From: a virus
Lineage: Duplodnaviria > Caudoviricetes
Length of the DNA: 36,249 bases
Direction: 5' to 3' (one strand)
IMG/VR virus record: IMGVR_UViG_3300029183_000430
Span: 1 to 36,249 of that record
The notes under the pieces were generated by a model. It did no database searches, was not told the DNA's origin, and saw only the letters and a program-made list of their open reading frames with translations. A program made the translations under genes and the position numbers. How positions within the stretch are numbered: the first letter of the stretch is position 1; the number at the start of each line of letters is the position of its first letter. Shown piece after piece: positions 1 to 35,226 of this stretch.

Positions 1-83
1 TATCGTGATGGCGATTGTGCTCATGATATTTGCTGTCATGTTATTCCGCACCACTGTCCAATACTTCTCGCGCTACATGCCCG
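1..83. repeat. Terminal direct repeat, left copy (circular contig overlap)
   Basis: 1-79 is identical to 36167-36245. Position 80 (c) mismatches 36246 (g), then ccg matches again. Confidence 0.97.
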
Positions 84-1390
84 ATTACATTATAAAGCAA
101 AGCCCGACAGCCTTGTCTCGTTTTGCGTGGGTTGTCTTTTATTTGGTCTTAGGCCTTGCTATTCTTAAAGTCCCAGCACGAACCCAAGTATACAACTACA
201 AGCGTCAACCTTGGATAAACAATGCATACCTTGAAACACGTCAGGCTGTGTCCATCGATGGCTATCGTGTCAGTCTTGTATTTGACCTTATAAGCCGTAC
301 ATCAGAAGAGATATCCGCTTTTATATCCCACAGCATAGACAGGCTGTTTAAAAGCTCCAATTCCCAACTCCACACGCCCGATATTGGGTACCGCGCTATG
401 GTGGCAGCGAGTGCGAACGTCGTTAAGTCCCCCCTACTTAAACACGGCCTCAACCTCTTTGCCACCAGCTGCGCTCCTCAACTTATGAAACATGATGCGG
501 GTGCGTGGACAAGCTCTTTTATCGGCAGCAGACCCAAAGAAATGGATGCTATTTTGCGTAGCATTCCCCTTACAGGCGAGCTTGCTGGTGCGACCAACTG
601 CCTAGCCCTAAATAACTACATTGATAAAGCTGTCATTGACGAAGCTCTGGACGAGTACAAGAAATCAGAAACCGTGCTTAACGCCCTTGGCGCCTCAACC
701 AATGTAAAACGCTTTCTTGCCGCATCTGCCATACGCAACCACTACGGCTCGGAGTATCAAACATCAGCAGGTGTCAATATTAAAGCCACCAATCCCGATT
801 GGTTTGTGGTCCTACGTCAAACTCTGGGCGGCTATTTTAAGAAAGCGAGAGGCTTTGGACGCAATAAATCAGGCCGTGTGAGCTTTAACGAAAACAACAC
901 CTTTACCGATAAAAATCAAGTGTATCACGCAAGTAATCGCTTTGATGCACGCCTAAACCAAGCACCTCATATGATTGGTTTGATAAAGATGATGCTGATT
1001 GCAGGGTTTCCTTTTCTCATCTTTCCTGTGGTGGCGGGAGGTTGGCGTGTTTTAATCTATTGGACCGCCATCTACTTCTCCGTTCTCTTATGGCAACCCC
1101 TTTGGTTATTTCTCTTCTATGTCATGCAATCGGTTGTGGGCGCCCAAGCTCAATTGCAGCAGCGCTTAGGCCACAGTGCCGGAGCTGTTATTGGAGCAAC
1201 CCTTATGGAAGATGATATGAACTTTTTCTACCAGCTGTACTACTGGATTCAACTTATTATCGGCCCTGTGTTTAGTTTTGTGATGATATTCTGGCTTAAG
1301 CCGTTTTTCCAAGGCTCAAAAGAAAGTGGAACAGACGCTATTAAGCACAGTAAAAGCGCCGCAGCGTTGTCAGGAGGTCCCATTGTCTAA
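5..1390 (+). CDS. TraG N-terminal-domain-like (TraG_N) multi-pass membrane protein; true start is across the circular join at 36078 (about 492 aa total)
   Basis: Two N-terminal TM segments, a long soluble region with paired Cys, and a C-terminal TM block (PHMIGLIKMMLIAGFPFL...YFSVLLWQPLW) resembling ICE TraG_N proteins. Frame is continuous with 36078-36170. Confidence 0.65.
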   Translation: MMAIVLMIFAVMLFRTTVQYFSRYMPDYIIKQSPTALSRFAWVVFYLVLGLAILKVPARTQVYNYKRQPWINNAYLETRQAVSIDGYRVSLVFDLISRTSEEISAFISHSIDRLFKSSNSQLHTPDIGYRAMVAASANVVKSPLLKHGLNLFATSCAPQLMKHDAGAWTSSFIGSRPKEMDAILRSIPLTGELAGATNCLALNNYIDKAVIDEALDEYKKSETVLNALGASTNVKRFLAASAIRNHYGSEYQTSAGVNIKATNPDWFVVLRQTLGGYFKKARGFGRNKSGRVSFNENNTFTDKNQVYHASNRFDARLNQAPHMIGLIKMMLIAGFPFLIFPVVAGGWRVLIYWTAIYFSVLLWQPLWLFLFYVMQSVVGAQAQLQQRLGHSAGAVIGATLMEDDMNFFYQLYYWIQLIIGPVFSFVMIFWLKPFFQGSKESGTDAIKHSKSAAALSGGPIV

Positions 1391-2141
1391 CCGTGAGACA
1401 GAACCAGAATCATTAATCATAGAACTAACCCCGGAGCAGAAAGCGCAACTTGTTATTTACCGCAATAAATGGATAGAGATTGGGTTATGTACGGAGCCAG
1501 CAAACCGACCGAAAGCGGAGGAAGGGATTAATTTGGCGTATGAATGCGCAGGTTTGGAGCCACCGAAAGAGATTATATGGTGCGAGTCTCCGTTATCAGC
1601 AACATTAATAGCATTTAGAAATTACACGAGAAGACCCGTTGAAAAATTTGTTAGAAGCGATGCGTGGCAGCTTGCTGGAAAACTTATTATGAAATCCGTT
1701 GATAAATTTCTTTTACAACGTATTGGGATGTCCGTTTGGAATCCTGTTTGGAAAAAAGTTGAAATTTCAGTTGGGAATTTTATTATGAAATCCATCTATA
1801 ACGTCCATGACTCTGTTAGACACATTGCTGGAGAGTTTTGTCTTGGTCAACATGATGCGCCATGGTTATCTTATTACGAGCACCTTCGAAAGGAGTTAGG
1901 TTTATACAAGGAAACAGAAGGACTTCAAGGATTATTAATCCAGGCACAGCACGCGGGTTGGTTTCTGCCTTATGAAGACGTGTGTTTTGTCTCAGAGCGT
2001 CCGAACTTCATCAAGCTTGATGATGACGGCCATCTTCACTGCGAAGACGGACCAGCGATTGAGTACCCCGACGGCTTTAAGGTTTATGCCCTGCATGGCG
2101 AAAGACAAGATAAAGGAGCGTTAAAGTGCCAGAACAATTAA
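1383..2141 (+). CDS. DUF6745-like protein
   Basis: Motifs GQHDAPW, GWFLPYEDVCFVSERP, LHCEDGPAIEYPDG. AGGAGG at 1372-1377 favours the TTG start at 1383 over 1326. Confidence 0.75.
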   Translation: MSNRETEPESLIIELTPEQKAQLVIYRNKWIEIGLCTEPANRPKAEEGINLAYECAGLEPPKEIIWCESPLSATLIAFRNYTRRPVEKFVRSDAWQLAGKLIMKSVDKFLLQRIGMSVWNPVWKKVEISVGNFIMKSIYNVHDSVRHIAGEFCLGQHDAPWLSYYEHLRKELGLYKETEGLQGLLIQAQHAGWFLPYEDVCFVSERPNFIKLDDDGHLHCEDGPAIEYPDGFKVYALHGERQDKGALKCQNN

Positions 2142-2455: not shown

Positions 2456-2463
2456 CCACTAAG

Positions 2464-3210: not shown

Positions 3211-3762
3211 ATGGCAAAAAACGCAGACAATCTTACCGATAAACAGATACGATTTGTCGCGGCTTATCTTGAAACCTTAAACGCCGCCGAAGCAGCACGA
3301 CGCGCCGGGTACCCTGAAAAGTCAGCCCGAGCTAACGGGTATAATCTATTGCAATTACCTCAAGTTCAAAAGGTTATTGAAGCCAAAAGAAAAGAAATTG
3401 CTGAACGCACTGACGTTACTTTAGAAAAAATAGTAAAAGAATACGCCTGCATTGCCTTTGCTAATATAGCCGATTTTGTTTATTGGGACCAAGACACCGT
3501 AACCTTAAAACCTTCCGATGAATTGACTCGAGAGGATACGGCCGCCATTATTGAGGTAATTCAAACGACATCATCTGACGGATCAAAAAACGTACGGTTT
3601 AAGCTGGGTGATAAAAAGGGGTCACTTGATTCATTAGGCCGCTATAGGGGCATGTTTGATGGAAAACACGGACCTGAAGACTTTAACTACATTGCATGGC
3701 TTAAAAAATTAGCCGACCAATCTAACACCGATGAGCAAAATAAAGAACCGTCTACCGAATGA
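3211..3762 (+). CDS. terS: Terminase small subunit
   Basis: LTDKQIRFVAAYL-x-x-LNAAEAARRAGY HTH signature (Terminase_2 type), IAFANIADF, KLGDKKGSLDSLGRY; directly upstream of TerL. Confidence 0.93.
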   Translation: MAKNADNLTDKQIRFVAAYLETLNAAEAARRAGYPEKSARANGYNLLQLPQVQKVIEAKRKEIAERTDVTLEKIVKEYACIAFANIADFVYWDQDTVTLKPSDELTREDTAAIIEVIQTTSSDGSKNVRFKLGDKKGSLDSLGRYRGMFDGKHGPEDFNYIAWLKKLADQSNTDEQNKEPSTE

Positions 3763-5344
3763 CCTCTATGCCATTCACGAGTCGATTCAAAACGACTTAA
3801 TCTTTTATGCCAAAAACCATCTACTTATCGTCACTAAATCAGGCAGTGTGGTGCCGTTTAAGCTTAATTACGTTCAAAACTATATCCACGATCAATTAGA
3901 AGACCAACTACGAACCACAGGCAAAGTCAGAGCCCTTGTTTTAAAATGCCGCCAGCCTGGTTGCTCAACCTATGTCGCTGGCCGCTTTTTCCACAAAACA
4001 ACTCAAAAGCAAGGGAAACGCACCTTTATTCTATCTCATGACTCCAAAACCACAGGCGAACTATTTAAAATCGTCAAACGCTTTCACGAACGCTTACCTA
4101 ATCCCGTAAAACCTGTAGCGAACACATCTAACCTTCAGCAGCTTATTTTCTCTGCCATAGAAAGTAGCTACACTGTGGGCACAGCTGGCAACGTCGAGGT
4201 TGGCCGTGGTTTAACGCTTCAGTATCTGCACGGCTCTGAAGTCGCCTTCTGGCCTAATGGCGATAAACTTATGAAAGGGGTGGGCCAGGCTGTTGCCGAC
4301 ATGCCAGGAACCGAAATAATACTCGAAAGCACCGCCAATGGCATGACCAACGAGTTTTATCGCATGTGCATGCAAGCCATCAAGGGCCGCGGGGACTACC
4401 GACTTATTTTTATTCCCTGGTTTTGGCATCATGAGTATGTCCGGGAGGTGCCAGATAACTTTGTTTTATCTGATGAAGAACTCCAATACCAAAAAACCTA
4501 TGACCTAACCGATGAGCAAATGGCGTGGAGACAAGCCAAACTTGAAAACTGGGGCGGTATCGAAAACGGTGCTCTTTGGAAATTTAAGCAAGAATACCCC
4601 GCGAACCCCATGGAAGCCTTTGAAACCTCCGGCGATAGCCTTATCAAAAGCGAATTTATTATGGCTGCCCGCAAAAGCAAACTCAAAGACCGTAACGCGC
4701 CCCTTGTTATGGGAATAGACAAAGCCCGCTCAGGTGACCGTACCGTCATTGCGTTCCGCCGCGGCCGTGAGGTCCCTAAATGCTACGCCTATACCGATAT
4801 GAACGAAATGCGCTTAGCCGGCATTGCTGCCCAATTAATAGACAAACACAAACCTAAAAAGTGCTTTGTCGATATTACCGACGGCTGGGGCTGTGTCGAC
4901 CGTCTTCATGAGTTAGGCTACCGCGATATTGTCGATGGCATCCACTTTGGGTCCAAAGCCACACAAGAAGACTTGTACGTCAATAAACGTGTTGAAATGT
5001 GGATATCGTTGCGTGACTGGTTCCACCAAGACGGCGAAAAGAACATCCCAGATGAAGACGAAATACAAGCCGACCTGACCGCCATTCCCGACGCCAAAGA
5101 ACAATCCAACGGTAAAAAATACCTGGTCTCTAAAGATAAAATTAAAGAAGCTTACGGAGGTAAATCACCCGATTACGGTGATGCCCTTGCTTTAACATTT
5201 GCTTTTCCTGTCCGAATAGAGCACAATAACCGCAAACATATGTCCACAAATAAGTCACAAGGCATAAAAGCATTTGGGCGTATGAGAAAAAATGACCAAG
5301 ATATAAACGAAACATCAATCTATATTGATGCCATAAGGAGATAG
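3731..5344 (+). CDS. terL: Terminase large subunit
   Basis: ATPase motifs LKCRQPGCST, YLHGSEVAFW, ILESTANG; FKQEYP; nuclease motifs MGIDKARSGDRT and KSPDYGDALALTF. Confidence 0.95.
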   Translation: MSKIKNRLPNDLYAIHESIQNDLIFYAKNHLLIVTKSGSVVPFKLNYVQNYIHDQLEDQLRTTGKVRALVLKCRQPGCSTYVAGRFFHKTTQKQGKRTFILSHDSKTTGELFKIVKRFHERLPNPVKPVANTSNLQQLIFSAIESSYTVGTAGNVEVGRGLTLQYLHGSEVAFWPNGDKLMKGVGQAVADMPGTEIILESTANGMTNEFYRMCMQAIKGRGDYRLIFIPWFWHHEYVREVPDNFVLSDEELQYQKTYDLTDEQMAWRQAKLENWGGIENGALWKFKQEYPANPMEAFETSGDSLIKSEFIMAARKSKLKDRNAPLVMGIDKARSGDRTVIAFRRGREVPKCYAYTDMNEMRLAGIAAQLIDKHKPKKCFVDITDGWGCVDRLHELGYRDIVDGIHFGSKATQEDLYVNKRVEMWISLRDWFHQDGEKNIPDEDEIQADLTAIPDAKEQSNGKKYLVSKDKIKEAYGGKSPDYGDALALTFAFPVRIEHNNRKHMSTNKSQGIKAFGRMRKNDQDINETSIYIDAIRR

Positions 5345-5346
5345 AT

Positions 5347-5622
5347 ATGGGAGGCTCTGCTAGTGTTTTAGGGGCTGCATTGGCCCCAGTTACTTTCGGA
5401 ACCAGTCTAGCTCTCACGCAAGGAGCTAAAAAGGCAGGACAATTGATAACACCTAAACCCCCACAAGCGGGCTTGCCGCAACAGACCCCAACTGCCAGCG
5501 ACGATAACGAAGACGAGGAAATTAAACGCCGTGCTCGATTGGGTCTTATTAACGAACAGTCTTTACGACAAAGCTTTGGAACGCCTCAATCGGTAGGACG
5601 ACGACGCCTTTTAGGCAATTAA
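5347..5622 (+). CDS. Small hypothetical virion-associated protein
   Basis: MGG start, ends RRLLGN, between TerL and portal as is common in this podovirus layout; AAGGAG RBS. Confidence 0.65.
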   Translation: MGGSASVLGAALAPVTFGTSLALTQGAKKAGQLITPKPPQAGLPQQTPTASDDNEDEEIKRRARLGLINEQSLRQSFGTPQSVGRRRLLGN

Positions 5623-5650
5623 TTAATGTATCACGGCGATATATTATAAA

Positions 5651-7369
5651 ATGGCAAATAAACTAATAGATTACCATACTCCTGAAAAAATAACGCGTCG
5701 CTTTGAATCCCTCAAGACGCAAAAAGCAGCTATCCTCGAAGACCTGCGTGTCATCGATAAATACGTCAACGCACGTGAAACCGCAGGCGATGAAATGTCG
5801 CTCATTAAACTCGTTAACCGCGAGCTTTTTGATTCCACCGCACGAAAAGCCAATAAGCTTATGGCCTCCATCATCGTCGGTATGCTATGGTCTGGCGCAA
5901 CACGCTCCATACGCCTAGAACCTCCTGAAGAACTGCCCGATAACCAAGCAAACCGCGAATATTACGATTTTGTAACACGCGAAATGGCGCGCACCATGGA
6001 TGACCCACGTTCAGGATTTTCCATGGCCATGAACGAATACATGAAAGACCAAGGTTCTTATGGAACCAGTGGACTGTACTCCGAAGAGGCCCCCGATGAT
6101 GACCCCATCGATGTGCTATTCCAAGCCTGGGGCCTCAAAAGCTTAGTTATTAACGAAGGATCCAATGGATTCGTTGATACCGTCTACCGCGAGTTTGAAT
6201 GGCCTATCAATAAAGCCGTAAAAGAATACGGCCTAGACAATCTGAGTGACGAAAACAAAGACAAGTTTTTAAACAATCACGGTCATGAAAAGATGCGTAT
6301 CCTGCACGCCATCGAACCACGTGTAGGAAGAACAAGCGATGACCCAAGTAACCAAAACATGCCGTGGGCTTCGATTCACTTTGAATCTAAATCAAAGAAA
6401 ATACTACGAACCAGCGGATTTGCCGAAATACCCGTTAAAATAGCACGCTTTGACAAAATGTCAGAAGACCTCTATGGCCGCTCACCTGCCATGGACGCTC
6501 TAAGCGATATCCTCGAATTAGACGGTATATGGGAATCTCTTACCCTTGCCATTGAAAAAAACCTCGATCCGCCCATCGTCGTACTAGATGACGGCCGTCT
6601 TGGTGCAGATAAAATAGACACAAGCCCTAAAGCCATCAACGTATTCCGTATTACAGGGCGTATCGGCAATCAACCCCCCGTGTCTCCCATGTTTACCGTA
6701 GGGGAAATGAAAAGCACCCAAGAACTTGTCACCGTCCTGGTCGATTCCATCATGCAGCATTTCCTTATCGACCGTCTTCTCGACCTCAATAACGAAACCC
6801 AAATGACCCTAGGCGAAGCTCAAATTAGAAACAGCATACGTGGCACCCTCCTAGGCTCTGTCTTTGACCGACAAATTACCGAAATGCTCACGCCCACCAT
6901 CCAACGCACCTTTAACATCAAACTTAAACGGGGCTCCTTGGGTGTCATCCGTGGTTCCGAAGATGAACAAATCCTTATTGCAAAAGGCAAACAACCTGTC
7001 TATATCCCCGATGATGTCGCTAAACTTATCCTCGACGGCAAAGACGTCTATCGCATTGCCTATTTTACGCCCGCTATGCGCATGCTACGCGCCGAACAAG
7101 CTCAAGGCATACTACAGACCTGGAATTTTGTTAAAGACGTATCACAAGGAAAGCCTTCCGCAATGGACAATTTTGATGAAGACAAAGCAGTGCGCGAAGT
7201 GGCTGAAATTGCTGGCGCCCCTGCTAAAATACTCAAAGATTTTAAAAGTATGATTAAAGAACGTCAGATGCGTACACAAATGGTTGAACAGCAGGAACAA
7301 ACCGCACAACTTGAACAAGCGGCCAATATTGCGCAAGTGGCTACAAAAGCCGCCGCCAACGTAACCTAA
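5651..7369 (+). CDS. Portal (head-to-tail connector) protein, T7 gp8/BPP-1 type
   Basis: FDSTA, GFVDTVYREF, YGRSPAMDALSDI and QMTLGEA motifs; 572 aa; synteny. Confidence 0.93.
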   Translation: MANKLIDYHTPEKITRRFESLKTQKAAILEDLRVIDKYVNARETAGDEMSLIKLVNRELFDSTARKANKLMASIIVGMLWSGATRSIRLEPPEELPDNQANREYYDFVTREMARTMDDPRSGFSMAMNEYMKDQGSYGTSGLYSEEAPDDDPIDVLFQAWGLKSLVINEGSNGFVDTVYREFEWPINKAVKEYGLDNLSDENKDKFLNNHGHEKMRILHAIEPRVGRTSDDPSNQNMPWASIHFESKSKKILRTSGFAEIPVKIARFDKMSEDLYGRSPAMDALSDILELDGIWESLTLAIEKNLDPPIVVLDDGRLGADKIDTSPKAINVFRITGRIGNQPPVSPMFTVGEMKSTQELVTVLVDSIMQHFLIDRLLDLNNETQMTLGEAQIRNSIRGTLLGSVFDRQITEMLTPTIQRTFNIKLKRGSLGVIRGSEDEQILIAKGKQPVYIPDDVAKLILDGKDVYRIAYFTPAMRMLRAEQAQGILQTWNFVKDVSQGKPSAMDNFDEDKAVREVAEIAGAPAKILKDFKSMIKERQMRTQMVEQQEQTAQLEQAANIAQVATKAAANVT

Positions 7370-7376
7370 TTACTTT

Positions 7377-7709
7377 ATGAGCGAAGAAAACCGCCCGGGC
7401 CTATCTACGCGCCAAGAACAAGCCAAACTCAAACGCCATCAAGCAGAAGCCCAAAAACGCGTCGAATACGAACGCCTTATTCAAGACATCAACACCACCT
7501 TTGCCACCGAAGAAGGTATTCGCACTCTACGCTGGCTCATGAATGAATGTGGCTTTATGGAATCAAACATCGTCTTCAATGGCAGCACCCTCGAGATTAA
7601 TGAAAAATCTGTGCTTTACAATGAAATGCGACGTGCTCTATACTTGCGAATACGAAGCATGGTAAGACCCGAAACACTTCGTAAGGTAGAACACGAAGGA
7701 ATCATTTAA
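7377..7709 (+). CDS. Bbp19-like conserved phage protein
   Basis: TFATEEGIRTLRWLMNECG...YNEMRRALYLRI pattern immediately after the portal. Confidence 0.7.
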   Translation: MSEENRPGLSTRQEQAKLKRHQAEAQKRVEYERLIQDINTTFATEEGIRTLRWLMNECGFMESNIVFNGSTLEINEKSVLYNEMRRALYLRIRSMVRPETLRKVEHEGII

Positions 7710-7711
7710 AG

Positions 7712-8035
7712 ATGGTGAGTCGGATACGTAATTTGTTATACAAATGGATATGCGATGTCTTTTACACGACCAACGCCAGTGACGAAGAACGTCAAACCAA
7801 GCGACGCCTTTTTGAGCAACAAAACACTCAGTGCGAAAAATTAACGCACGAAAAGTTGTATGGCGTAGAAGTAGAATTAAAAGAAGACGAAAAGGGGCGC
7901 ATGCCATTCCCAGTTAGCTGGACCGATGAAGGCGTTGAAATTATTTGGTTAACCGAAAAAGAATACCGAGAGCTCGCAAAGAAAAGGCAACAGCAAATAA
8001 ATCAAGAACTAAAAGAAGCGTTTGAAGGGAGTTAA
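7712..8035 (+). CDS. Hypothetical protein
   Basis: 107-aa ORF tightly packed in the head operon. Confidence 0.6.
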   Translation: MVSRIRNLLYKWICDVFYTTNASDEERQTKRRLFEQQNTQCEKLTHEKLYGVEVELKEDEKGRMPFPVSWTDEGVEIIWLTEKEYRELAKKRQQQINQELKEAFEGS

Positions 8036-8036
8036 T

Positions 8037-8897
8037 ATGTCGGAACAGGTCAGCCAAGAAACTAACATATCATCTAACGAAACCCTAGGCGGTGCCGAAG
8101 AAAACGTACAAACACCAACCACTTTACCCGAAACACCCGAACGCGTCGATTTATCCACCCTCGACTTCCAAGACTACATACCCGAAGAACACAAAGGCAA
8201 AGACTACCTTAAACCCGTTAAATCCTTCGATGACCTGTTTAACCAGTTTGATAATATACAAAAGCTTATTGGTAAGCGTAACCTGCCCGCTGATGATGCA
8301 ACCCCCGAACAATGGGACGAATACTTCTCTAAACTGCCAGGCAGACCCGAAAAACCAGAAGACTACGCCTTCGAACATCCCGAAGACCATCCCAAAAACG
8401 AAGAGTTCGACACCGCCGTAAAACAACTCATGCACCAAATAGGTCTATCTAAACAGCAAGCCTCTATCCTTCAAAAAGGCTTCGACGGTCTCATCAACCA
8501 ACAAATGCAAGCACAGGCTACCGCTAAAAAAGAACAAGACCAAGCATTTGAAAAACTAGCCGATAACCTGTTCGGTGATAAAAAAGATACCATTCTATCC
8601 GAAGTAAAAGCACTCATCGATGTGCATGCACCTGATGACTTAAAACCCCACCTTGGCCGACTCGATAACGAAAGCCTGATGCTCCTCGCTGGCGTGCTTA
8701 ATTCCGTACGTAACAAGTACATTAAAGAAGATTCCATACACCAAGGCCCCAATGACTCCGTCTCCATGAGTGAACAAGAAAGACGTGAAGAAGGTAGAAA
8801 ACTTATGCTGTCCGATGCCTACCGCGATTCCATGCACCCTGACCATGATAACGTTGTACATAAGGTCAATATTCTTTATGGAACAAAAAAACCATAA
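8037..8897 (+). CDS. Putative capsid scaffolding protein
   Basis: Acidic and helical; GRPEKPEDY motif; C-terminal AYRDSMHPDH; upstream of the capsid gene. ATG 8037 follows AAGGGAG. Confidence 0.8.
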   Translation: MSEQVSQETNISSNETLGGAEENVQTPTTLPETPERVDLSTLDFQDYIPEEHKGKDYLKPVKSFDDLFNQFDNIQKLIGKRNLPADDATPEQWDEYFSKLPGRPEKPEDYAFEHPEDHPKNEEFDTAVKQLMHQIGLSKQQASILQKGFDGLINQQMQAQATAKKEQDQAFEKLADNLFGDKKDTILSEVKALIDVHAPDDLKPHLGRLDNESLMLLAGVLNSVRNKYIKEDSIHQGPNDSVSMSEQERREEGRKLMLSDAYRDSMHPDHDNVVHKVNILYGTKKP

Positions 8898-9017
8898 TTT
8901 AATAGTAAGAATCCCAGCCTAACTAGCGTAAATATCATCACAAATGACAATATAACCGTGTAATTAAGCCACTTTAGAATCCTTCTATTGTGCCTTGGCA
9001 GTGTACAGGAATAAGTG

Positions 9018-9200
9018 TTAGTCTAAAACCAACTGTCTCATGACCGAACCGTCACCGTATGGTGTGCCTGCGCTAATGAGCTAGGGCATGAGATTAGATA
9101 CGCTGGCAGCGCGCATTACCGGCGTCAGTTGGCCCCGTTAGACTGAAGCCTTAAGTACCACTTAGGGGATTTGTAGGAATAATGGGGCCTTTCATTTTTT
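9018..9200 (+). ncRNA. Candidate structured RNA (multi-helix domain plus alternative terminator-like helix)
   Basis: Helices 9018-9026/9138-9146, 9029-9035/9126-9132, 9036-9042/9087-9093, 9053-9064, 9100-9106/9119-9125, 9149-9167. All non-Watson-Crick pairs are G-U on the + strand. Confidence 0.6.
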
Positions 9201-9237
9201 CCTTTACTTTCCTAGACAATTGAGCTAAGTCTAGACA

Positions 9238-9388
9238 CAAGGTCGGGTAGCGTCTCTGACGTCCGACTTGCTGACAGGTAAAGCTGTCCGCCTAGCCCGC
9301 GCGATGGGTTAGAAAACGTCCGTACTACACAACACGGGTAGCGTTTTCGGAATTATGAACAAGCACAGCATGAGCTGTGTGTAATTTC
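9238..9388 (+). promoter_or_regulatory. Structured 5' leader of the major capsid gene with a duplicated bulged-helix motif
   Basis: Five consecutive hairpins. CGGGTAGCGT at 9244-9253 and 9335-9344 each pair with ACGTCCG (9259-9265, 9316-9322), leaving a TAG bulge. Confidence 0.6.
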
Positions 9389-9414
9389 GTTACGTTATTT
9401 GGAGGAAGTGTAGT

Positions 9415-10302
9415 ATGGCTAGTGATTCAGTAGATCGCGCACTAATTACTCAGTTTTCAGACATGATTCACGTAAAGGCGCAGCAGATTCGTGCGCGGTT
9501 GCGTCCTTATGTACAGATTAAGCCCATGACTGGCGATATCATGGCTTACGATGGCTTAGGTGATGTGGAGAGCCGTGAGGTGAGCGGACGGGTTGTTAAA
9601 ACCGTTTTCGCTGACATTGAGCATCTCCGTCGTAAGATTCCCCGCAAACGGTTTGAAGTCACTCTACCGATTGACGGACATGATGTCGACGGCATGCTGC
9701 TAGACCCATCCGGCCCTTACGCAGAAGCATGTATCCGTGCCATGGAGCGTCGCTTTGACCGTGTATGTATCGAGTCCATGTTTGCCGATGTAGAAACCGG
9801 CCGTGAGTTTGATACCACCACCACCTTTGCGAATGATGGTGGGCGGACTGTCGATGCAACAGCAGGCTTAACCTATGAGAAGCTGTTAGAAACCGAGCAG
9901 AACTTCACCGATGATGAAGTAGGAACCGACCTGCCTGAAACCTTTGTTCTTGGCATTACTGGTAAAGAACACACCGCATTGATGCAGGAAAGTGAACTTA
10001 CCAGTGGTGACTTTACTCGCCAGTTTGCCATTGAGAAAGGGCAGATGGTAAGAGCCGGAGCTTTTGAGCTTATTCGTTACGGTGGTCAGGTAAATAACCC
10101 AATGCTATCCGTGAGTGGCGGCACAAGAGATTGTTTTGCCATGTCAACGCGCGGTATTTGCGTAGGGATATCGAAGCAGTTCAAAATATCGATTATGCCT
10201 AACCCGAACTATGTGGACTTAAAGCAGGTACAGATTGTCTTTACGTTGGGCGCAGTCCGGACAGAAGGCAAGCTCGTTCAGAAAGTCCAAACGACTGAAT
10301 AA
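9415..10302 (+). CDS. Major capsid protein (BPP-1 Bbp17-like)
   Basis: ITQFSDMIHVKAQQ-x-x-ARLR N-terminus, AMERRFD, C-terminal GAVRTEGKLVQ; GGAGG RBS; synteny. Confidence 0.88.
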   Translation: MASDSVDRALITQFSDMIHVKAQQIRARLRPYVQIKPMTGDIMAYDGLGDVESREVSGRVVKTVFADIEHLRRKIPRKRFEVTLPIDGHDVDGMLLDPSGPYAEACIRAMERRFDRVCIESMFADVETGREFDTTTTFANDGGRTVDATAGLTYEKLLETEQNFTDDEVGTDLPETFVLGITGKEHTALMQESELTSGDFTRQFAIEKGQMVRAGAFELIRYGGQVNNPMLSVSGGTRDCFAMSTRGICVGISKQFKISIMPNPNYVDLKQVQIVFTLGAVRTEGKLVQKVQTTE

Positions 10303-10320
10303 TAGGGAGGTGTATAGAAT

Positions 10321-10824
10321 ATGGCTGTTGAAAACAAATACGTAAATAGTGACCTTGCTGCAGGTAAGGTAGGTAAGGCAGCTTACGTAAGCGGAGCAGA
10401 AGCTTACATCGCTGTAGCACATGCCACTGTGGCTGCTGCTGACGATAACGGCTCAATCTACCGCTTATTTAAAGCCTTGGCTCCTGACTTGATTCCCGTC
10501 AAAATCGAAATCTTAAATGATGCGATTACTGGCGGAACCGACTACGATCTAGGCTTTTACGAGCCTCTTGAAGGTGGTAGCGGCCCCGTTATAGACAAAG
10601 ACGCACTGGTAGACGGTGCTGACTTGTCCTCGGGGAATGGTCAGGGCTCTGAGCTTACCGGTTTGAGTGCTGTAGGGGTTGAAGAATCACAGCAGCGCTT
10701 GTGGGAGCTTGCAGGTCACACCGCAACCCAAAAACAAGATGCGTATGATATTGCCTTAACTGCCAACACGGTCGGCACCGCCGCAGGCGATATTGTCGTA
10801 AAAGCGTGGTTTGTACAAGGATAA
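10321..10824 (+). CDS. Putative capsid decoration/cement protein
   Basis: Beta-rich Ala/Gly/Asp protein directly after the capsid gene; strong GGGAGGT RBS; followed by a terminator. Confidence 0.65.
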   Translation: MAVENKYVNSDLAAGKVGKAAYVSGAEAYIAVAHATVAAADDNGSIYRLFKALAPDLIPVKIEILNDAITGGTDYDLGFYEPLEGGSGPVIDKDALVDGADLSSGNGQGSELTGLSAVGVEESQQRLWELAGHTATQKQDAYDIALTANTVGTAAGDIVVKAWFVQG

Positions 10825-10854
10825 TACAGACCACCATATGTTAGTACCCGGTAT

Positions 10855-10889
10855 AAGGGCGGTCGATCGCTAAGGTCGCCGCCCTTTTT
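10855..10889 (+). terminator. Rho-independent terminator after the head genes
   Basis: AAGGGCGG-t-CGATC-loop-GGTCG-CCGCCC-TTTTT. Confidence 0.85.
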
Positions 10890-10908
10890 ATTAACTATAG
10901 GATAAATT

Positions 10909-11559
10909 ATGTCAGCACCTACGAGCGCCGTTGAAATATGTAACCTGGCCTTAGACCATATTAAAGTGGATGGAACAGACCAAGTTACCAATTTAGATGA
11001 CCCGTCTATTAACCTAGAAGAAGTATGTGCCCGGTGGTATGATGCCACACGCCGTAACCTTCTTCGTCGACACGGATGGAACTTTGCAATTAAACGCGCC
11101 ATTATTACCAAAGACGCTACAGCCCCTGCCTTCGAATTTAGCGATGCCTATAATTTACCCAATGATTACATACGCTTAGTAAGTTTAGGCGCGGCGGGCG
11201 AGTTTGACGACTATGTAGTTGAGAACAACCAGATTTTGATGGATAGGTCGGATCTATACGATTCTGGCGATGACCTAAAAATAAGATATATCTACGACCA
11301 TACATCCGTTGCTAAATTCGACCCCATGTTTGTTACCCTTCTGTCCTTATTTCTAGCCCGGGAGCTTGCTTATAAATTGTCGGGAAGTAATACGGTAGTT
11401 CAACGTTTAGATAATCGTATTGATACGGAAATTGTAGATGCCTTTGCCGCAGATGGCCAAGAAAGGCCCCCTAAGCGTATTGAGAAAAGCAAGTGGACGT
11501 CCAAACGGTTCTTTGGTGGCAGGGGTGTTGCAGGTAATGTCACGGTGGTTGATGATTAA
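10909..11559 (+). CDS. Tail tubular protein A / adaptor (T7 gp11-like)
   Basis: VEICNLALDHI, HGWNFAIKR, YNLPNDYIRL, FDPMFV motifs. Confidence 0.88.
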   Translation: MSAPTSAVEICNLALDHIKVDGTDQVTNLDDPSINLEEVCARWYDATRRNLLRRHGWNFAIKRAIITKDATAPAFEFSDAYNLPNDYIRLVSLGAAGEFDDYVVENNQILMDRSDLYDSGDDLKIRYIYDHTSVAKFDPMFVTLLSLFLARELAYKLSGSNTVVQRLDNRIDTEIVDAFAADGQERPPKRIEKSKWTSKRFFGGRGVAGNVTVVDD

Positions 11560-14120
11560 TGCCTCGCGCTAACATTACGATTAGCAACTTTGCAGGGGGC
11601 GAAGCGTCTCCCAAGATGCGCGGGCGATATGATCTGCCTATTTATCCCACCCTTAGTGAGCGTATGCTCAACTTTATCTCTCAAACCCAAGGTGGCGGGA
11701 CCTACCGCAATGGAACTCGCTTTGTCAATCATACCCGTCTTAATAAAACCGCCTTTTTCTATACCTTTCAGTTCAATGACGAACAGTCCTATATTATGGA
11801 ATTTACAGATAAAAAGCTGCGGTTCTTTACCAACGAAGGCTTTCTGCTTGAGACTGCTAAAAACATTACAGGTATCACCCAAGCCAACCCCGGGGTGGTT
11901 ACTTCGGCGTCACATGGCTATGAAAACGGCGACGAGGTGTACATCACGGGCGTATCAGGCATGACGGAAGTCAACGGCAAGACCTTTATTGTGACTAATA
12001 AAGCAACAAATACCTTTGAATTATACGATGTGGATGGGAATAAGGTAAACACATCAGGGTTTACAGCTTATTCATCAGGTGGCACGGTGGCTCGTATTTA
12101 CGAATTAGACACTAATTATTTAGAAGCCGAACTATTCCAGCTTAAGTTTGCCCAAAGAGCAAACGTGATGTACATTACTAGTTTGAAGCATGAGCCTAAA
12201 AAGCTAACACGAGTCAGTGCGACATCATTTACGCTATCTCGCTATGACCGCACAGCTGATCCCTTCACAGACCAAAAGACTATAACAGGAATTACGCAGG
12301 CAGACCCGGGCGTGGTAACAGCGACGGGCCATGGCATATCAGATGGCACCGAAGTTATTATTGATGATGTAACAGGCATGACCGAAGTCAACGGCGAACG
12401 GTATGTTGTAACCAATAGCACTGCCAATACCTTTGAACTCTATGACACGGATGGAAATACCGTGGATACATCAGGATTTACGGCCTACACGTCGGGTGGT
12501 TATGCTACAGAAACGGATGAGTTTCCCGCGGCTGTTACGTTTTATGAAGATAGATTAGCGTTTGGAGGAACGACTAACAGGCCGCAAGGACTTTTTAAAA
12601 GTAGAACAACAGACTCAAGTGGGAACACGCGGTATGATGATTTTACATTAGGCACTGACGACGACCATGCAATAATTACAACGCTAGCCTCGCGCGAGGT
12701 TAATTCGATTCGTTGGATGGTTGGAACAGATAAGCTTATGGCGATAGGAACGTTCGGAGCTGAGTTTAGGGCATCAGCCTCAACTGATAGCGAGGCCATT
12801 ACTCCTACCAATATTAATGTGCGGCCTGTTACGTATAACGGAGCTGCTGACCAAAACCCAGTCACCCATGATAATATTATTCTTTATGTGCAGCGCGGTA
12901 AGCAAATATTACGCAGTTTTGAATATGATGTTGTAGCCGATAGTTTCGTGTCTTTTGACCGTAATCTTATTGCTGACCACATAACCGAAGGTAATTTAAA
13001 GCAAATCACATTGCAGCAAGGACGCCCTGATGTGATGTGGGCCGTAAAAGAGGATGGTGAGCTATTGGGCCTCACTCTACAGCCCAAAGAAAATATATCG
13101 GGATGGCATCGACACAGTTTATCCGGAACGTCCGCAAAAGTACTTAGTGTGGCTGCGTTGCCGCGGAACAACAACTTTGACCAGCTGTGGCTCGTTGTCG
13201 AACGTACCATTGATGGTAACACCAGGCGCTATGTTGAGTTTATGGAAGATACGCCCGTGTATCCCGTATTAGAAGACTATTTTAGTGGGGCCTCAAATAG
13301 AGTAGCTGACCAGCAAAAATACTGGCGTGAACTATTCGAAAAGCAAAAGGAATACGTCCATTTAGACGCTTGCGCAACATACGATGGAAGAGACACAGGG
13401 ACCAATAACAGCGCGACAATAACTCCCGGAGCAACGACAGGCACAGACGTAACGTTTACAGCAAGTACATTCCCTATTTTCTCAGCATCAGATGTGGGCC
13501 GTGAAATATGGAAACAAACCATTGATGGAGAGGGCCAAGGTCGTGCTGAAATAACCGAGTTTGTAAGTACAGGCAGCGTAAAATGCGAAATTTATGAGGA
13601 CTTCGATAGCACCGATGCCATTGCAGCTGGTAGATGGTTTTTGACAACCGATAGCATTACCGGCCTTGACCATCTGGAAGGCGAAACAGTCGATATCGCC
13701 ACAGACGGCGGAGTTCATGCACAAAAGACGGTTGCTAGCGGAGCTATTACTTTAGATGACCAAGCTAGTGTCGTGCATGTTGGCCTTGGGTATCGCGGTT
13801 ACATTAAGACTATGCCCATTGAAGTAGGAGGTGTGCAAGGTCCTGCGCAGTCTCGTCTTAAAAATGTATTTCAACTTGGCGTCTTGTTTCTCCATACATT
13901 AGGTACACGCATAGGCACCGATTTGTATAATATGGAAGCAGTAACCGACCGCTCAGCCGAACATTTTACCGACAGACCACCCCCTTTATTTAGTGGAATG
14001 CGTATCGTGACGTATGAAGATGTGCCAGGTGTGCAAAAAAGTGTTATTATTGAGCAAAATAACCCCACGCCCTGCACGGTATTATTGATAGACCCGCAGG
14101 TAAGCACAGCGGTGGATTAA
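11559..14120 (+). CDS. Tail tubular protein B / nozzle (T7 gp12-like) with two inserted FCCH-like modules
   Basis: NFAGGEASP N-terminus, FYEDRLAFGG, GWHRH, GLDHLEGETV, VHVGLGY; two 76-aa internal repeats. Confidence 0.88.
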   Translation: MPRANITISNFAGGEASPKMRGRYDLPIYPTLSERMLNFISQTQGGGTYRNGTRFVNHTRLNKTAFFYTFQFNDEQSYIMEFTDKKLRFFTNEGFLLETAKNITGITQANPGVVTSASHGYENGDEVYITGVSGMTEVNGKTFIVTNKATNTFELYDVDGNKVNTSGFTAYSSGGTVARIYELDTNYLEAELFQLKFAQRANVMYITSLKHEPKKLTRVSATSFTLSRYDRTADPFTDQKTITGITQADPGVVTATGHGISDGTEVIIDDVTGMTEVNGERYVVTNSTANTFELYDTDGNTVDTSGFTAYTSGGYATETDEFPAAVTFYEDRLAFGGTTNRPQGLFKSRTTDSSGNTRYDDFTLGTDDDHAIITTLASREVNSIRWMVGTDKLMAIGTFGAEFRASASTDSEAITPTNINVRPVTYNGAADQNPVTHDNIILYVQRGKQILRSFEYDVVADSFVSFDRNLIADHITEGNLKQITLQQGRPDVMWAVKEDGELLGLTLQPKENISGWHRHSLSGTSAKVLSVAALPRNNNFDQLWLVVERTIDGNTRRYVEFMEDTPVYPVLEDYFSGASNRVADQQKYWRELFEKQKEYVHLDACATYDGRDTGTNNSATITPGATTGTDVTFTASTFPIFSASDVGREIWKQTIDGEGQGRAEITEFVSTGSVKCEIYEDFDSTDAIAAGRWFLTTDSITGLDHLEGETVDIATDGGVHAQKTVASGAITLDDQASVVHVGLGYRGYIKTMPIEVGGVQGPAQSRLKNVFQLGVLFLHTLGTRIGTDLYNMEAVTDRSAEHFTDRPPPLFSGMRIVTYEDVPGVQKSVIIEQNNPTPCTVLLIDPQVSTAVD
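11856..12500 (+). repeat. Two 228-bp (76-aa) repeats within tail tubular protein B: 11856-12083 and 12273-12500
   Basis: ITGITQAxPGVVT...HG...GMTEVNG...NTFELYDxDGNxVxTSGFTAYxSGG in both copies. Confidence 0.9.
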
Positions 14121-14626
14121 TGAATAAGGCTGCAATAATCGACATAGAAGAAACATATGACGATACAAGCCGTAAATTTGTACCGTTTCACGTGGAACAT
14201 TTAAACACCATGGCGTTACGGGAACAAGAACAGCAGGAGATGGAAAAGCTAGACCGTGTGAGAGACCGCTACGAAAAGCTAAGTCAAATGGGACCGGCGT
14301 CCAGCGTCATCCATCATGGGCGTGTTATCACCTGTGTAGGGGTGGTAGAGCATTGGCCTGGTAACTGCGAAGTATGGCAGGTGCCGTCTATTTACTTGGC
14401 ACAAAAGCCTTTTTACTACGCACGACTGATGCGACACTGGCTTGAGTCGGTCGCAAAGTCCTTTGAGTGCCGACGGATGCAGACGGTATGTGTTGATGAT
14501 GACTTGCATGCACGCTGGATGGCTTTCTTAAAGTTTGAGTCGGAAGGTGTTTTAAGGCAATATTCGGTATTAGGACAAGACTATAGACAATATGCGAGGT
14601 TATTTACATGGCAACAGGAGCCTTAA
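14120..14626 (+). CDS. GNAT-fold protein (T7 gp13 position)
   Basis: GVVEHWPGNCEVW and RWMAFLKFESEGVLRQY motifs; position after the nozzle gene. Confidence 0.7.
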   Translation: MNKAAIIDIEETYDDTSRKFVPFHVEHLNTMALREQEQQEMEKLDRVRDRYEKLSQMGPASSVIHHGRVITCVGVVEHWPGNCEVWQVPSIYLAQKPFYYARLMRHWLESVAKSFECRRMQTVCVDDDLHARWMAFLKFESEGVLRQYSVLGQDYRQYARLFTWQQEP

Positions 14627-15054
14627 TTGGCGGCTCCCTTTTAGGGGCCGGCGCTAATATAATCGGAGGTGCTGCCGCCGATGAAGCAGCTCGCCAGCAG
14701 TCCTCTATTATTCTTCAACAAGGAGCTTTAGCTCGAGAAGAGTCAGAAGAAGAAGCCCGTCGTCTCGAAATAGAAGCACGTAAGTTTAGAGCCAGACAAA
14801 ATGTCCTATTTGGTAAAAGCGGTGTAACCCTCGAAGGCTCTCCTTTGTTAGTGCTAGAAGAAACACGGCGTGAAGGAGCAAGGCAAGCAACAGCTGTGCG
14901 GAGACAAGGCGTAGCACGTGCTAATCTTGCTGTAGCAGAGTCCCAGCGTGTCCGCAATCAAGGCCGTGCCAGGCTTCTTACAGGCTTTTTAGGAGGTGGT
15001 GCCAGTCTATTTAACACATTAGGTCAGTTCTCGTCTTTTGGAGGTCCTCGTTAA
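14608..15054 (+). CDS. Internal virion/ejection protein (gp14-like)
   Basis: Gly/Ala hydrophobic ends, SGVTLEGSPL motif; synteny. Confidence 0.75.
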   Translation: MATGALIGGSLLGAGANIIGGAAADEAARQQSSIILQQGALAREESEEEARRLEIEARKFRARQNVLFGKSGVTLEGSPLLVLEETRREGARQATAVRRQGVARANLAVAESQRVRNQGRARLLTGFLGGGASLFNTLGQFSSFGGPR

Positions 15055-16799
15055 TGGCTCGCGTGCCTGAATTTCAGCGACGCCGTTTGGCTTCCAGTGT
15101 CGTGGGCGTGCCAGGTCAAGACACGTCAGGTCAAATTATTGCCCAAGGAGTAGGGCAGTTAGGGCAGTCCGTAGCACAGTTTGGTCAGCAAGAACTAGCC
15201 AAGGAACGGGAACGCACGTTACGCAAGCAACGCATCAATGATGCCACATGGACGAGCGCACAATCAGCTGAGTATGACTTTCGTTCGACCCAGGTTTTTA
15301 ATAATTTTCAAAACGAGTTCAAAGACGACCCGCTAGATAAGCAAGATATTTTACGAGACCGACTCACAGCACTTGGCCAACAGTTGGGAGACAATGCGCC
15401 TTCAGACGAAGCAAAAGCATCGTTTCAGCGTATGATAGATACCAGCGTAGGTAATATCTTATCTCAATCTGTGCGGTGGGAAGACCAACAGTTTGCATCG
15501 GTGGCAGCCATGCGGTCAGAACAAACAGCAGAAACCTTAAACACATCGGCCTTGCGAGCTGCCTCCGAAGCAAGCATTCCAGATTTATTTAACCAAGTGG
15601 AAACCTCTGTCATGTCGAATGCGGAATTGCTTAGTAGCGAAGCCATGGCACAGCAAGAACGAACCATGAAGCAAGGGGTTGTGAATAATACAATAGACGG
15701 CATGCTACAGCAAGGAAATATAGAGCAAGCTGAAGCATTATTAAACAGCAAAAAATATGACGATGTGCTAGGTTCCGATTCCATTAAATCTGCTCAAGGA
15801 CGAATCAATCGATTTAAAAGTCAGCAAGCGTCATTGCAGAAAAAGCTTAATAAGCTACGCAAAGATAAGCCGTGGGAGTTTGTCGTTGCGTCAGGTATTA
15901 ACGAAGGGCTAGCCCCTATCGATTTTCAAGGTGACTTGTCTGATACCATTACACAGCGCCAGTTATTTATCGACCGTGTAAAAACAGACCATAATCTAGG
16001 CCTACCACTGCTTATGCCCCAAGAAGTGGATATGTTACAGAACTTCTTTGAAAGCTCATCTGAGCCAGAAGTCGCCGGGTTTTTGTCTCGATTTAAGACA
16101 TCCTTGACGAACGACCAAGCGTTAACAGTCTCTCAGCAGTTATTTGAAAAAAACAAAGCATCAGGTGCTGCGCTAGGTGTAGCCGATGACGATGCTAAGA
16201 CAGCCCAAAATGTGCTGCGTGGGGTTAATTTGATTGCAAATAAGGCACTTGTAACGCCATCAGACAGGGAAATGCAGGAGGAGTTTTTTTCTAAGCTTGA
16301 TAGAGCGGTAAGGTCTCCTGAAGTGCGGGGTGTCATGTTCGAGGGAGTTAAAGCCTTATACGCACAAAAAGCATTTTCTGAAGGTATCACAACAGGCGTG
16401 TTGGATACTGACCTGCTTGAGGAATCCATGAATGAGCTTGTAGGGCCTGTAGTATATGAAGACCGCAACTTGTTTCGTGCAGACCGCTTAGGCACACTGT
16501 CGTTTAGAGACCCCGATACGGGCCAGTTTTTAGAAAGCGACGAGTTTGATGATGTGATGGATGATTTGACCTTTGAACAGGTACAAAAAACCCACGGCGA
16601 TGTGCCGCGTAACGTGAATGGGGAATCTATACCCTTAGAAGACATCCAGAAGCTAGGCGAACTTGTCGTCGTGGGAGACGGATTATATCACATCATTTTT
16701 AATTTGGACAATAGCCGACAGTTCGCTGTCGATAGCAAAGGCAATCCCTTTGTGCTTGATTTACGACAAATCTATCAGGCACAGAAGAGAGGAAGTTAG
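15054..16799 (+). CDS. Putative internal virion/ejection protein
   Basis: MARVP start, long helical Q/E-rich protein; translationally coupled in the ejection block. Confidence 0.65.
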   Translation: MARVPEFQRRRLASSVVGVPGQDTSGQIIAQGVGQLGQSVAQFGQQELAKERERTLRKQRINDATWTSAQSAEYDFRSTQVFNNFQNEFKDDPLDKQDILRDRLTALGQQLGDNAPSDEAKASFQRMIDTSVGNILSQSVRWEDQQFASVAAMRSEQTAETLNTSALRAASEASIPDLFNQVETSVMSNAELLSSEAMAQQERTMKQGVVNNTIDGMLQQGNIEQAEALLNSKKYDDVLGSDSIKSAQGRINRFKSQQASLQKKLNKLRKDKPWEFVVASGINEGLAPIDFQGDLSDTITQRQLFIDRVKTDHNLGLPLLMPQEVDMLQNFFESSSEPEVAGFLSRFKTSLTNDQALTVSQQLFEKNKASGAALGVADDDAKTAQNVLRGVNLIANKALVTPSDREMQEEFFSKLDRAVRSPEVRGVMFEGVKALYAQKAFSEGITTGVLDTDLLEESMNELVGPVVYEDRNLFRADRLGTLSFRDPDTGQFLESDEFDDVMDDLTFEQVQKTHGDVPRNVNGESIPLEDIQKLGELVVVGDGLYHIIFNLDNSRQFAVDSKGNPFVLDLRQIYQAQKRGS

Positions 16800-18532: not shown

Positions 18533-18535
18533 TTT

Positions 18536-20998: not shown

Positions 20999-20999
20999 T

Positions 21000-26765: not shown

Positions 26766-27034
26766 GGCATTTAATCGCCATTCTCGCTATTGTTGTGGGG
26801 CTTACTGGATGCTTTTTGAAGTCATCATCTCAAGACCCTATTATTTTACCTTCGGACCGGCTTTTGTGGCGTATTGTTTGTCAGGACACCTTGTGCAGTG
26901 CAGTGGTTCGTGATGAGGAAGGTGTCATTGTAGCCGAAAAAGCCATCCACGACCTCAACGGGTTTTTTGCAATCACACCGGGCTATATGGTCGATATCTT
27001 TCAGAAGTGTGCTATTGAAGCCCAGTCTCGTTAG
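26762..27034 (+). CDS. Lipoprotein, possible o-spanin
   Basis: MRHLIAILAIVVGLTGC lipobox at the end of the lysis cassette. Confidence 0.6.
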   Translation: MRHLIAILAIVVGLTGCFLKSSSQDPIILPSDRLLWRIVCQDTLCSAVVRDEEGVIVAEKAIHDLNGFFAITPGYMVDIFQKCAIEAQSR

Positions 27035-27675
27035 CCCGCAAAACGAATAGCATCTTCTACCAGTCCAGTAGGTATTTGTAATTCTTTGGCGAGGTCAGCC
27101 ACTGATTCCCCCGCACTAAACCGCTCACAAATAGATGAAGTAGGTATGCCGATTCCATTAAGTGTTGGCTTGCCAAAATTTAAGGTTGGGTCAATGATTA
27201 TGGGCTTAGATTTGTTTGGGTCATAAGGGTGAGGATCTCTAAGAAATGGAAAAAATGCGGTTGGATCGCAGGAAGCGTCATATAGGATGCGTTCCAAATA
27301 TATTTTGTTGATGTGTTGAAGGTGACTGATAAAAAGATGCGGCTTAAGCAGCGGCCTTTGTATTTCTTTGGTCGTTAAACGAAATATCTCGTTGCAAATG
27401 ATGTTTTCTGGAACCCCACACCGGTGTTTAAGCAAGTAAAACACATATGCTTGAATTAGACTATTGAACGATAGGCCTTTGTCTTTAAAATGAAAAGTTT
27501 TTTCAATTTGTATAATTGGTGGCGTGTCTTCGTAATAGCCAGACACAAGCCATCTATCTAAATCGTGAATTGACACGTGTAAATAACGGGAGGCATCTGA
27601 AATAGAGCAAATCGGAATATCTCTAACATCTTTCCCCTGGCGCATATACTCAAATATTTCCTTTTCTGTCCCCAT
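27031..27675 (-). CDS. DUF433-domain protein with N-terminal HTH (VapB45-like antitoxin architecture)
   Basis: IIIDPTLNFGKPTLNGIGIPT..I.ERFSAGESVADLAKE...VEDAIRF; N-terminal SISDASRYL.V....L.RW. Confidence 0.88.
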   Translation of the reverse strand: MGTEKEIFEYMRQGKDVRDIPICSISDASRYLHVSIHDLDRWLVSGYYEDTPPIIQIEKTFHFKDKGLSFNSLIQAYVFYLLKHRCGVPENIICNEIFRLTTKEIQRPLLKPHLFISHLQHINKIYLERILYDASCDPTAFFPFLRDPHPYDPNKSKPIIIDPTLNFGKPTLNGIGIPTSSICERFSAGESVADLAKELQIPTGLVEDAIRFAG

Positions 27676-27698: not shown

Positions 27699-27764
27699 GC
27701 GAATACGCAAATAATTACTTGACACCTCACACATAGCATGAGATGGTGATTATAGCGAATACGC
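27699..27764 (+). promoter_or_regulatory. Early promoter bracketed by two GCGAATACGC operators
   Basis: Operators at 27699-27708 and 27755-27764; TTGACA at 27719-27724; 27699-27727 is identical to 31935-31963. Confidence 0.8.
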
Positions 27765-31934: not shown

Positions 31935-32002
31935 GCGAATACGCAAATAATTACTTGACACCTTAGGGCATCTATGAGACGCTCAATTTATCGCGAATAC
32001 GC
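31935..32002 (+). promoter_or_regulatory. Second early promoter bracketed by two GCGAATACGC operators
   Basis: Operators at 31935-31944 and 31993-32002; TTGACA at 31955-31960. Confidence 0.8.
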
Positions 32003-35217: not shown

Positions 35218-35226
35218 CACACCCCC

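Follow-up and report, generated by a model that had tools for sequence, protein, structure and literature searches.

A lone, full-length TraG_N/VirB6-like gene in a podovirus genome and its possible use on a co-resident ICE

The stretch of viral DNA analysed here (36,249 nt; hereafter, the window) encodes a complete set of podovirus morphogenesis proteins together with one mating-pore subunit, which sequence comparison confirmed as a full-length, diverged member of the TraG_N/VirB6-like family. A phage-borne traG is known from this one genome. The best single reading, which we hold tentatively, is that the phage hitch-hikes on a co-resident ICE in the manner of SGI1.

The first 83 nt of the window recur at 36167–36249 with one mismatch, and the window is thus a circularly permuted version of a 36,166-bp circle, cut inside the traG_N-like gene. 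Across the joined ends the gene runs from TTG 36078 to TAA 1390 (492 codons, no stop), in keeping with the uninterrupted ORF of about 492 aa described in the initial annotation. The same protein (P0001, 492 aa) was found on a separate Logan contig of 15,273 nt, as the 30 codons of the window's tail followed by the 462 of its head, identical throughout. The parts of the gene and the main structural region are as follows.

36078..36249, plus strand: 5' part of the traG_N-like gene, with a TTG start (36078) that aligns with the start of the ICE homologues; 36167–36249 is the terminal overlap.
1..1390, plus strand: 3' part of the traG_N-like gene (residues 31–492), encoding a large loop between two hydrophobic helices on the N-terminal side and about three on the C-terminal side.
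3211..22652, plus strand: morphogenesis genes of podovirus type (terminases, head-tail connector, capsid, tail tubes, internal virion proteins, fibre), sharing a contig with traG.

Read assemblies were compared over window positions 1–16,000. A contig from run X1 extends 363 nt before window position 1 and covers 1–14,910 with 0 differences, including the genes for terminase, portal, capsid and tail, and a 1,705-nt contig from run X2 extends 968 nt before position 1 and bridges the join. An 87-aa ORF upstream of traG, or its C-terminal part, is recorded on the contigs of 15,273 nt and 1,705 nt. Because both runs belong to one study, which may be the source of the window, they represent an independent assembly, not an independent sample or habitat.

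Pfam and PHROG scans of 53 window ORFs recognised podophage genes for small and large terminase, head-tail connector, capsid, tail tubes and internal virion proteins, as well as fibre, holin and endolysin. No integrase, polymerase, primase or helicase was recognised among these 53 ORFs, and no tRNA was detected in the window. The second half of the circle may have lost an integrase region, given that the assembly comparison covered 1–16,000. The genome is compact, with 4.9% of it non-coding. Based on Bbp19, phrog_332 and Mtd-type matches, we take the phage to belong with the BPP-1/APSE-like podoviruses. Two other elements were observed, i.e., Rfam DUF3800 RNA motifs IX and VIII, which exceed the gathering score and lie in the gap preceding the capsid gene (9035–9098 and 9129–9191), and a 21-nt inverted repeat (95%; 33930–33950 and 34305–34325) around a 354-nt segment.

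The phage TraG is predicted to be polytopic, with hydrophobic segments at residues 20–53, 66–90, 352–409 and 442–466 and a large central loop containing C187 and C230, two cysteines common to the ICE TraG family. P0001 itself had no match to Pfam TraG_N (PF07916) at E ≤ 0.1 and did not reach the gathering score, NCBIfam offered no family for it, and word-index homology searches returned P0001 as the sole match. Its assignment as TraG_N/VirB6-like is therefore based on homologues and structure. An exhaustive phmmer search gave 55 relatives; of the 27 scanned, 16 matched Pfam TraG_N and 6 did so above the gathering score. P0011, P0014, P0015 and P0018 (phmmer E 3e-50 to 4e-37) surpass the TraG_N cut-off of 36.1 bits, and Atlas features agree with TraG_N for 29 of 30 matches. 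An HMM built from 71 ICE TraG proteins, with P0001 left out, matched residues 1–484 of P0001 (E 4.9e-120). The structure model (pLDDT 71) was searched against 48,161 solved chains, and DotA ranked first (9ngy; Z 8.3, rmsd 6.9, 251 aligned) and TrwI/VirB6 seventh (7o3v; Z 5.9, rmsd 6.3, 203/261 aligned), with Z values within the chance range for helical proteins. Foldseek gave no match in its pdb and viral sets at E ≤ 0.001, nor did a sequence search of the PDB. The TraG_N-like identity first proposed from the sequence is thus upheld by the end-to-end match to the ICE-family HMM and by the Pfam matches of the relatives; the top rank of DotA would fit it, at a Z value that helical proteins can reach by chance, and a direct Pfam match and a Foldseek match were not obtained.

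The phage copy is about 30% identical to ICE TraG proteins, versus 46% among the ICE copies. These are natively 489–526 aa long in 62 of 64 cases, so the phage protein, with 492 aa and the native start, is not truncated, and nothing therefore marks it as a decoy. Among near-invariant family columns, 33 of 94 are altered in the phage protein; it retains 59 of 93 conserved columns, and other diverged members retain 42–75. Identity to ICE members reaches 40–47% in the membrane segments and 15% in the loop at residues 191–340. In a quick tree of 52 rows, in which its placement is weak, the phage branch measures 2.88 versus a median of 0.74; this long branch could come from an unsampled ICE. A complex prediction of the phage TraG with an ICE TraH gave a score of 0.23 (mark 0.32) and was given no weight as evidence.

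To what kind of element the family belongs was read from 77 genome loci, fetched from the best 80 of 98 stretches in a closer alignment. All 77 carry another ICE marker and so lie in conjugative elements, and 62 bear Bdellovibrionota-group labels. The same ICE neighbours were found at 23 of the 24 metagenome loci with neighbours. The usual gene order is ATPase, thioredoxin-like TraF, pilin, TraE, TraK, TraB, VirB4, TraH-like and TraG, with TraH annotated in 10 of 32 members. TraG is followed by lipoprotein-MobC-MOBP relaxase or by FtsK-Replic_Relax, and then by an excisionase-like HTH gene and an integrase. Two apparently lone traG copies (L175 and L179) turned out to be ICEs once the wider region was fetched, and two loci (L180 and L229) are too short for a lone or ICE call.

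Taken as a group, these loci outline a compact ICE family, found chiefly in Bdellovibrionota, whose channel is F-like but reduced and which has two alternative DNA-processing modules (MobC plus MOBP relaxase, or FtsK plus Replic_Relax), often in several copies per genome (L003–L079 and L206–L237; e.g., L004:1-17000). It is present in 39 of 401 sampled genomes, and our literature search found no relevant published description of it. A small lipoprotein gene (family F14, e.g., in L019) directly follows traG at 42 of the 77 loci from the best 80 of 98 stretches. Its product is a candidate entry-exclusion factor; exclusion genes occupy the corresponding position in other systems, according to the available text of PMC11493245. 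One family member, P0013 (950 aa), is a natural fusion of a TraH-like protein and TraG.

In the phage, traG stands alone, as originally noted. When HMMs of 22 other ICE gene families were run against all six frames of the window, nothing was found at E ≤ 0.05 except a match to a serine-recombinase model (E 0.03). No tra, relaxase, VirB4, coupling protein or integrase gene was detected in the window by Pfam/PHROG scans of the 53 ORFs and the ICE HMMs, the latter also finding no TraH or lipoprotein remnant. TraN had no Pfam match in the window, and no TraN family occurs in these ICE loci. By blastn, the window matched the ICE loci inside traG only. Among related phages, traG was found in 0 of 45 records, 25 of which are at least 90% complete, and three pattern scans of viral contigs yielded no further phage copy. 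A tblastn search with the window protein returned nothing from 50,697 phage or 72,556 plasmid records, as did searches with P0011 and P0036 against the phage records and with P0036 against the plasmid records.

Expression signals were mapped next to traG and across the early region.

36020..36029, plus strand: box GCGAAAACGC, which differs from the phage box at one position and abuts the -35.
36030..36058, plus strand: predicted sigma70-like promoter TTGACT-17-TATGCT (9/12 consensus; TTGACT at 36030, TATGCT at 36053).
36056..36071, plus strand: second, weaker box (two mismatches, 36056–36065) over the -10, then the RBS AAGGAG (36066–36071).
1373..2141, plus strand: GGAGG within the last traG codons and the overlapping DUF6745 gene (TTG 1383).
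27699..27764, plus strand: two exact boxes around the first early promoter.
31935..32002, plus strand: promoter preceding the Erf recombinase operon, flanked by two exact boxes.
33362..33400, plus strand: exact box abutting TTGACA-17-TAGTAT, in the same geometry as the traG promoter.
27031..27675, minus strand: HTH + DUF433 gene, the sole one on this strand, oriented divergently from the first box; it may encode the regulator that binds the boxes.

Promoter, RBS and the exact native start of traG are packed in 57 nt, and traG is likely coupled translationally to the DUF6745 gene that follows. The initial annotation had described a GCG-N4-CGC box abutting the -35; the RBS, the sigma70-like promoter and a one-mismatch box at the -35 were all recovered, but the loose pattern is not enriched in the window (11 seen versus about 7.8 expected), and the real box is GCGAATACGC. 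The latter has five exact copies versus 0.055 expected (200 shuffles), four instances of box plus TTGAC versus 0.045 expected from shuffles, and exact copies at three early promoters. Across 251 genomes the box gave 15 matches in 14, not above the reversed control, and a viral scan gave single scattered matches. Box plus TTGAC occurred in 0 of 109 ICE loci, 84 related-phage loci and the region of the closest prophage found (in genome G370, below). Neither enriched in genomes nor present in ICE loci, the box is probably the phage's own, and we set aside regulation by the host or an ICE as the less likely reading of it.

Boxes placed against a -35 may bind activators as well as repressors. The regions 27699–27764 and 31935–32002 share near-identical 38-nt promoter heads with a perfect TTGACA and a poor -10, one box lying one helical turn upstream and a second downstream; an activator may be needed there. 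From its position and fold, we infer that the minus-strand protein is a candidate box binder. It is HTH_66/DUF433 antitoxin-like, with no PIN toxin partner recognised, and could act as the box regulator or else be an orphan antitoxin that counters host defence.

Downstream of traG, the ICEs carry an element of the form hairpin + NNN + CT(T/G)GC, present in 50 of 51 MOBP-type regions and 0 of 14 FtsK-type loci, with stems that covary (0/500 shuffles). In these elements (e.g., L003:11611-11652, alignment A4) an 18–27-nt hairpin with a variable central 6-bp palindrome is followed by three bases and CTTGC. We infer that the element is a putative oriT; its position before mobC-relaxase and its hairpin-plus-nick layout fit one, as far as the available text of 10.1101/2024.01.30.577996 goes. 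Two features of the phage are relevant.

35440..35476, plus strand: hairpin (35440–35468) abutting TAT-CTTGC, within a longer stem (35422–35480); candidate oriT mimic of MOBP ICEs.
35218..35756, no strand assigned: 539-nt non-coding gap, the largest in the phage; candidate replication origin, with a DnaA-type box (35227–35235) and TGTCA/TGACA repeats (35615–35664).

The hairpin and its TATCTTGC site lie 600 nt upstream of traG, are non-coding and single in the window, and show the modal TAT spacer; the hairpin's value is -7.7 kcal/mol. A core descriptor of such sites, written post hoc once the phage site was known, was found in 3/500 shuffles at ≤-2.6 and 0/500 at ≤-5.1. In 1.8 Mb of control phage DNA, consisting of matches of the viral box scan, it gave two sites at ≤-2.6 and none at ≤-5.1. 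A broad descriptor was found in 31/500 shuffles; in the control phage DNA its rate was 0.2 per 36 kb. A covariance model of 38 ICE elements recovered 14 sites in 33 other ICE loci, and the window site was absent among its 12 matches to E 10. The phage hairpin is 29 nt long (ICE, 18–27 nt) and has neither the central 6-bp palindrome nor the T-tract seen in the ICEs, and TATCTTGC falls inside a longer stem of 59 nt; the nick-type motif pairs upstream in 21 of 50 ICE elements as well. On this comparison, the site at 35440–35476 is a candidate oriT mimic, to which we give about one chance in four. The surrounding gap holds five TGTCA/TGACA repeats and an exact match to the consensus of a DnaA-type box; the window has no recognisable gene for a replication initiator, helicase, polymerase, integrase or partition protein.

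Relatives of the phage point to a host. The 401 genomes searched come from the phylum of a Bdellovibrionaceae genome. One of them, G370, contains an integrated prophage whose capsid and terminase are 69% and 55% identical to those of the window, the highest of those seen, and a gene in the prophage flank tracks the relatives of G370. A Bdellovibrionota host is likely; the capsid family is broad (1,101 matches), so the host is not fixed. Neither the prophage nor the rest of G370 has a TraG match, and seven near relatives of G370 are not among the 39/401 ICE-positive genomes. A DNA search of window 16300–36249 in the 401 genomes gave short chance-level matches only and no host link. The prophage itself (G370:C13 ~49,200-84,100; L185–L187) is podoviral, with a tyrosine integrase and an Acb2/Tad1-hairpin gene.

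If the phage hitch-hikes, a TraG/VirB6-like subunit would have been captured, likely from a Bdellovibrionota-type ICE, and placed behind the phage's boxed promoter. It would replace the ICE's own copy in the mating channel of a co-resident ICE. The circular phage DNA might then be nicked by the ICE relaxase at the oriT-like site, and would also pass into recipients that shut out the native channel through an ICE of their own. The host, expression of the gene, entry of its product into the ICE channel and escape from exclusion are all conjectural steps of this scheme. It is favoured by an intact diverged subunit, an ICE lipoprotein neighbour, a circular genome without integrase and a possible oriT, and because known elements with VirB6/TraG but no full channel are hitchers. 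According to the available texts, VirB6 homologues occur in SGI1, GISul2 and an IncP island, none of which has a full channel (PMC5704250, PMC11493245, PMC11389934); SGI1 TraG enters the helper pore and disables helper entry exclusion (PMC5704250), and similar pore remodelling is proposed for GISul2 and the IncP island (PMC5704250, PMC11493245, PMC11389934).

Also counting for hitch-hiking are the family-wide ICE linkage, the native length and start, the absence of ICE flanks, the coupling to the next phage gene, the closest prophage lying in a Bdellovibrionota sample genome, and the oriT-like descriptor site. Against it count that the covariance model misses the site, that the hairpin departs from the ICE form and that the descriptor is post hoc; that SGI1 also brings TraH and TraN and the phage neither; that there is one genome, that G370 is without TraG, that the capsid family is wide, that the branch is long and that the Z values fall in the chance range. 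A full virion module, moreover, makes conjugation unnecessary for the phage. Of the roles originally suggested, engagement of an ICE transfer system gains most. It is doubtful that the genome represents a two-exit phage of predatory bacteria, leaving in virions and by conjugation via a co-resident ICE with its own pore subunit and oriT mimic; if true, it would rewire a conjugation channel as SGI1 does.

Rather unlikely, in our view, is that the protein blocks conjugation, i.e., that a diverged subunit jams the ICE channel so that pili are not built or DNA is not moved, and superinfecting phage would then miss a pilus receptor or the ICE would be inactive during infection. The membrane segments that keep their identity around a diverged loop, the altered near-invariant columns and a box common to early genes would suit such a role, but the native length, both cysteines and the conserved columns, retained as in other diverged members, give no sign of inactivation. 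The dominant-negative or decoy subunit of the initial annotation thus gained no positive evidence. In a lysogen, which is where exclusion counts, the gene would be silent should the box serve a repressor. Nothing points to the pilus as the receptor, and no paper on such a blocker was found in the literature.

It is improbable as well that the protein has been exapted away from the ICE for an inner-membrane role of the phage, for example keeping out the DNA of other phages or altering the envelope. Such a role would fit the long branch, the lack of a partner gene in the phage and the closest prophage's genome being without the ICE gene. However, the whole-length family profile is kept, and the homologues lie in tra clusters at all 77 genome loci (from the best 80 of 98 stretches) and, of the 24 metagenome loci with neighbours, at 23.

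We likewise give little credence to passive cargo. On this reading, a diverged ICE outside the sample donated the gene fairly recently, the gene came to lie between an existing boxed promoter and the DUF6745 gene, and the phage does not yet benefit from it. This would agree with the single genome, a variable slot before the terminase in relatives, the GC3 of traG (0.495, the highest of 19 long genes) and other long branches being ICE-borne (L184). On the other side, 1.5 kb is kept intact in a compact genome, the native start, RBS and promoter lie within 57 nt, no TraH or lipoprotein remnant is present, and the codon score of traG is mid-range (0.043; range 0.012–0.092). The clean ends, the absence of ICE flanks and the overlap with the start of the next phage gene favour the domestication suggested in the initial annotation over a pasted-in piece of an ICE; cargo is kept as an unlikely reading. 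An assembly chimera joining ICE and phage DNA is largely refuted and very improbable: the record is classed as linear and 89% complete and the read-assembly comparison spans only window 1–16,000, but contigs of two runs cross the join, one of them running from the upstream ORF through the join and traG to the capsid genes with 0 differences, and the traG promoter bears the phage box.

We found no paper on a phage-borne TraG/VirB6 in the literature. Section 6 of a review (PMC12282955, citing Huang et al. 2023) reports no conjugative phage-plasmid or prophage, only ICE-mobilised prophages, and conjugative transfer, if used by this phage, would be a rarely seen phage route. A complete phage keeping one mating-pore subunit under its own box is a concrete case of a phage acting on conjugation machinery. 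Whether the phage rides or blocks, a structural subunit would become a further point of conflict between phages and ICEs; if it blocks, it would amount to a conjugation inhibitor of natural origin. The analysis also outlines a widespread Bdellovibrionota ICE family with a covarying putative oriT.

In comparison with known systems, the phage protein shares with the TraG of F/R100 and SXT/R391 the N-terminal VirB6-like membrane domain, needed there for pilus assembly, and differs in being without the C-terminal TraG* domain (452–940), in the available texts of PMC9797247 and PMC4027160. In F/R100 TraG the exclusion determinant is described as residues 610–673 of that domain (PMC9797247). The phage TraG ends after its last hydrophobic helix and so is not the known exclusion determinant. 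The link to F and SXT/R391 entry exclusion is accordingly not supported as first proposed, the C-terminal exclusion domain being absent from the phage protein and from its 489–526-aa ICE relatives alike. Relative to Bdellovibrionota ICE TraG, the phage copy agrees in family, length, start and cysteines; it is more diverged and lies outside any tra operon, and it has its own promoter, whereas the ICE gene is coupled to traH. The morphogenesis block and gene order are those of BPP-1/APSE-like podoviruses, from which the phage differs in carrying traG and in having no recognised polymerase, primase, helicase or integrase. Like pOriT/iOriT elements and ICE-mobilised prophages, it may be transferred via a look-alike of a helper-relaxase oriT (10.64898/2026.01.13.699239); its site, however, is a candidate that departs from the ICE model, and the available text of that source describes no phage-borne channel subunit for pOriT/iOriT. 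SGI1, with TraG(S), and GISul2 and the IncP island, with TrbL, are integrative islands that also carry TraH/TraN or TrbJ/TrbK, whereas the phage has one subunit and no integrase. The promoter of SGI1 is helper-activated, and the phage box is neither found in ICE loci nor enriched in hosts. At best, the phage resembles an SGI1-type hitcher without being a member (no TraH, no integrase, a candidate oriT), and what it shares with these islands is a VirB6/TraG of its own in an element that lacks a full channel.
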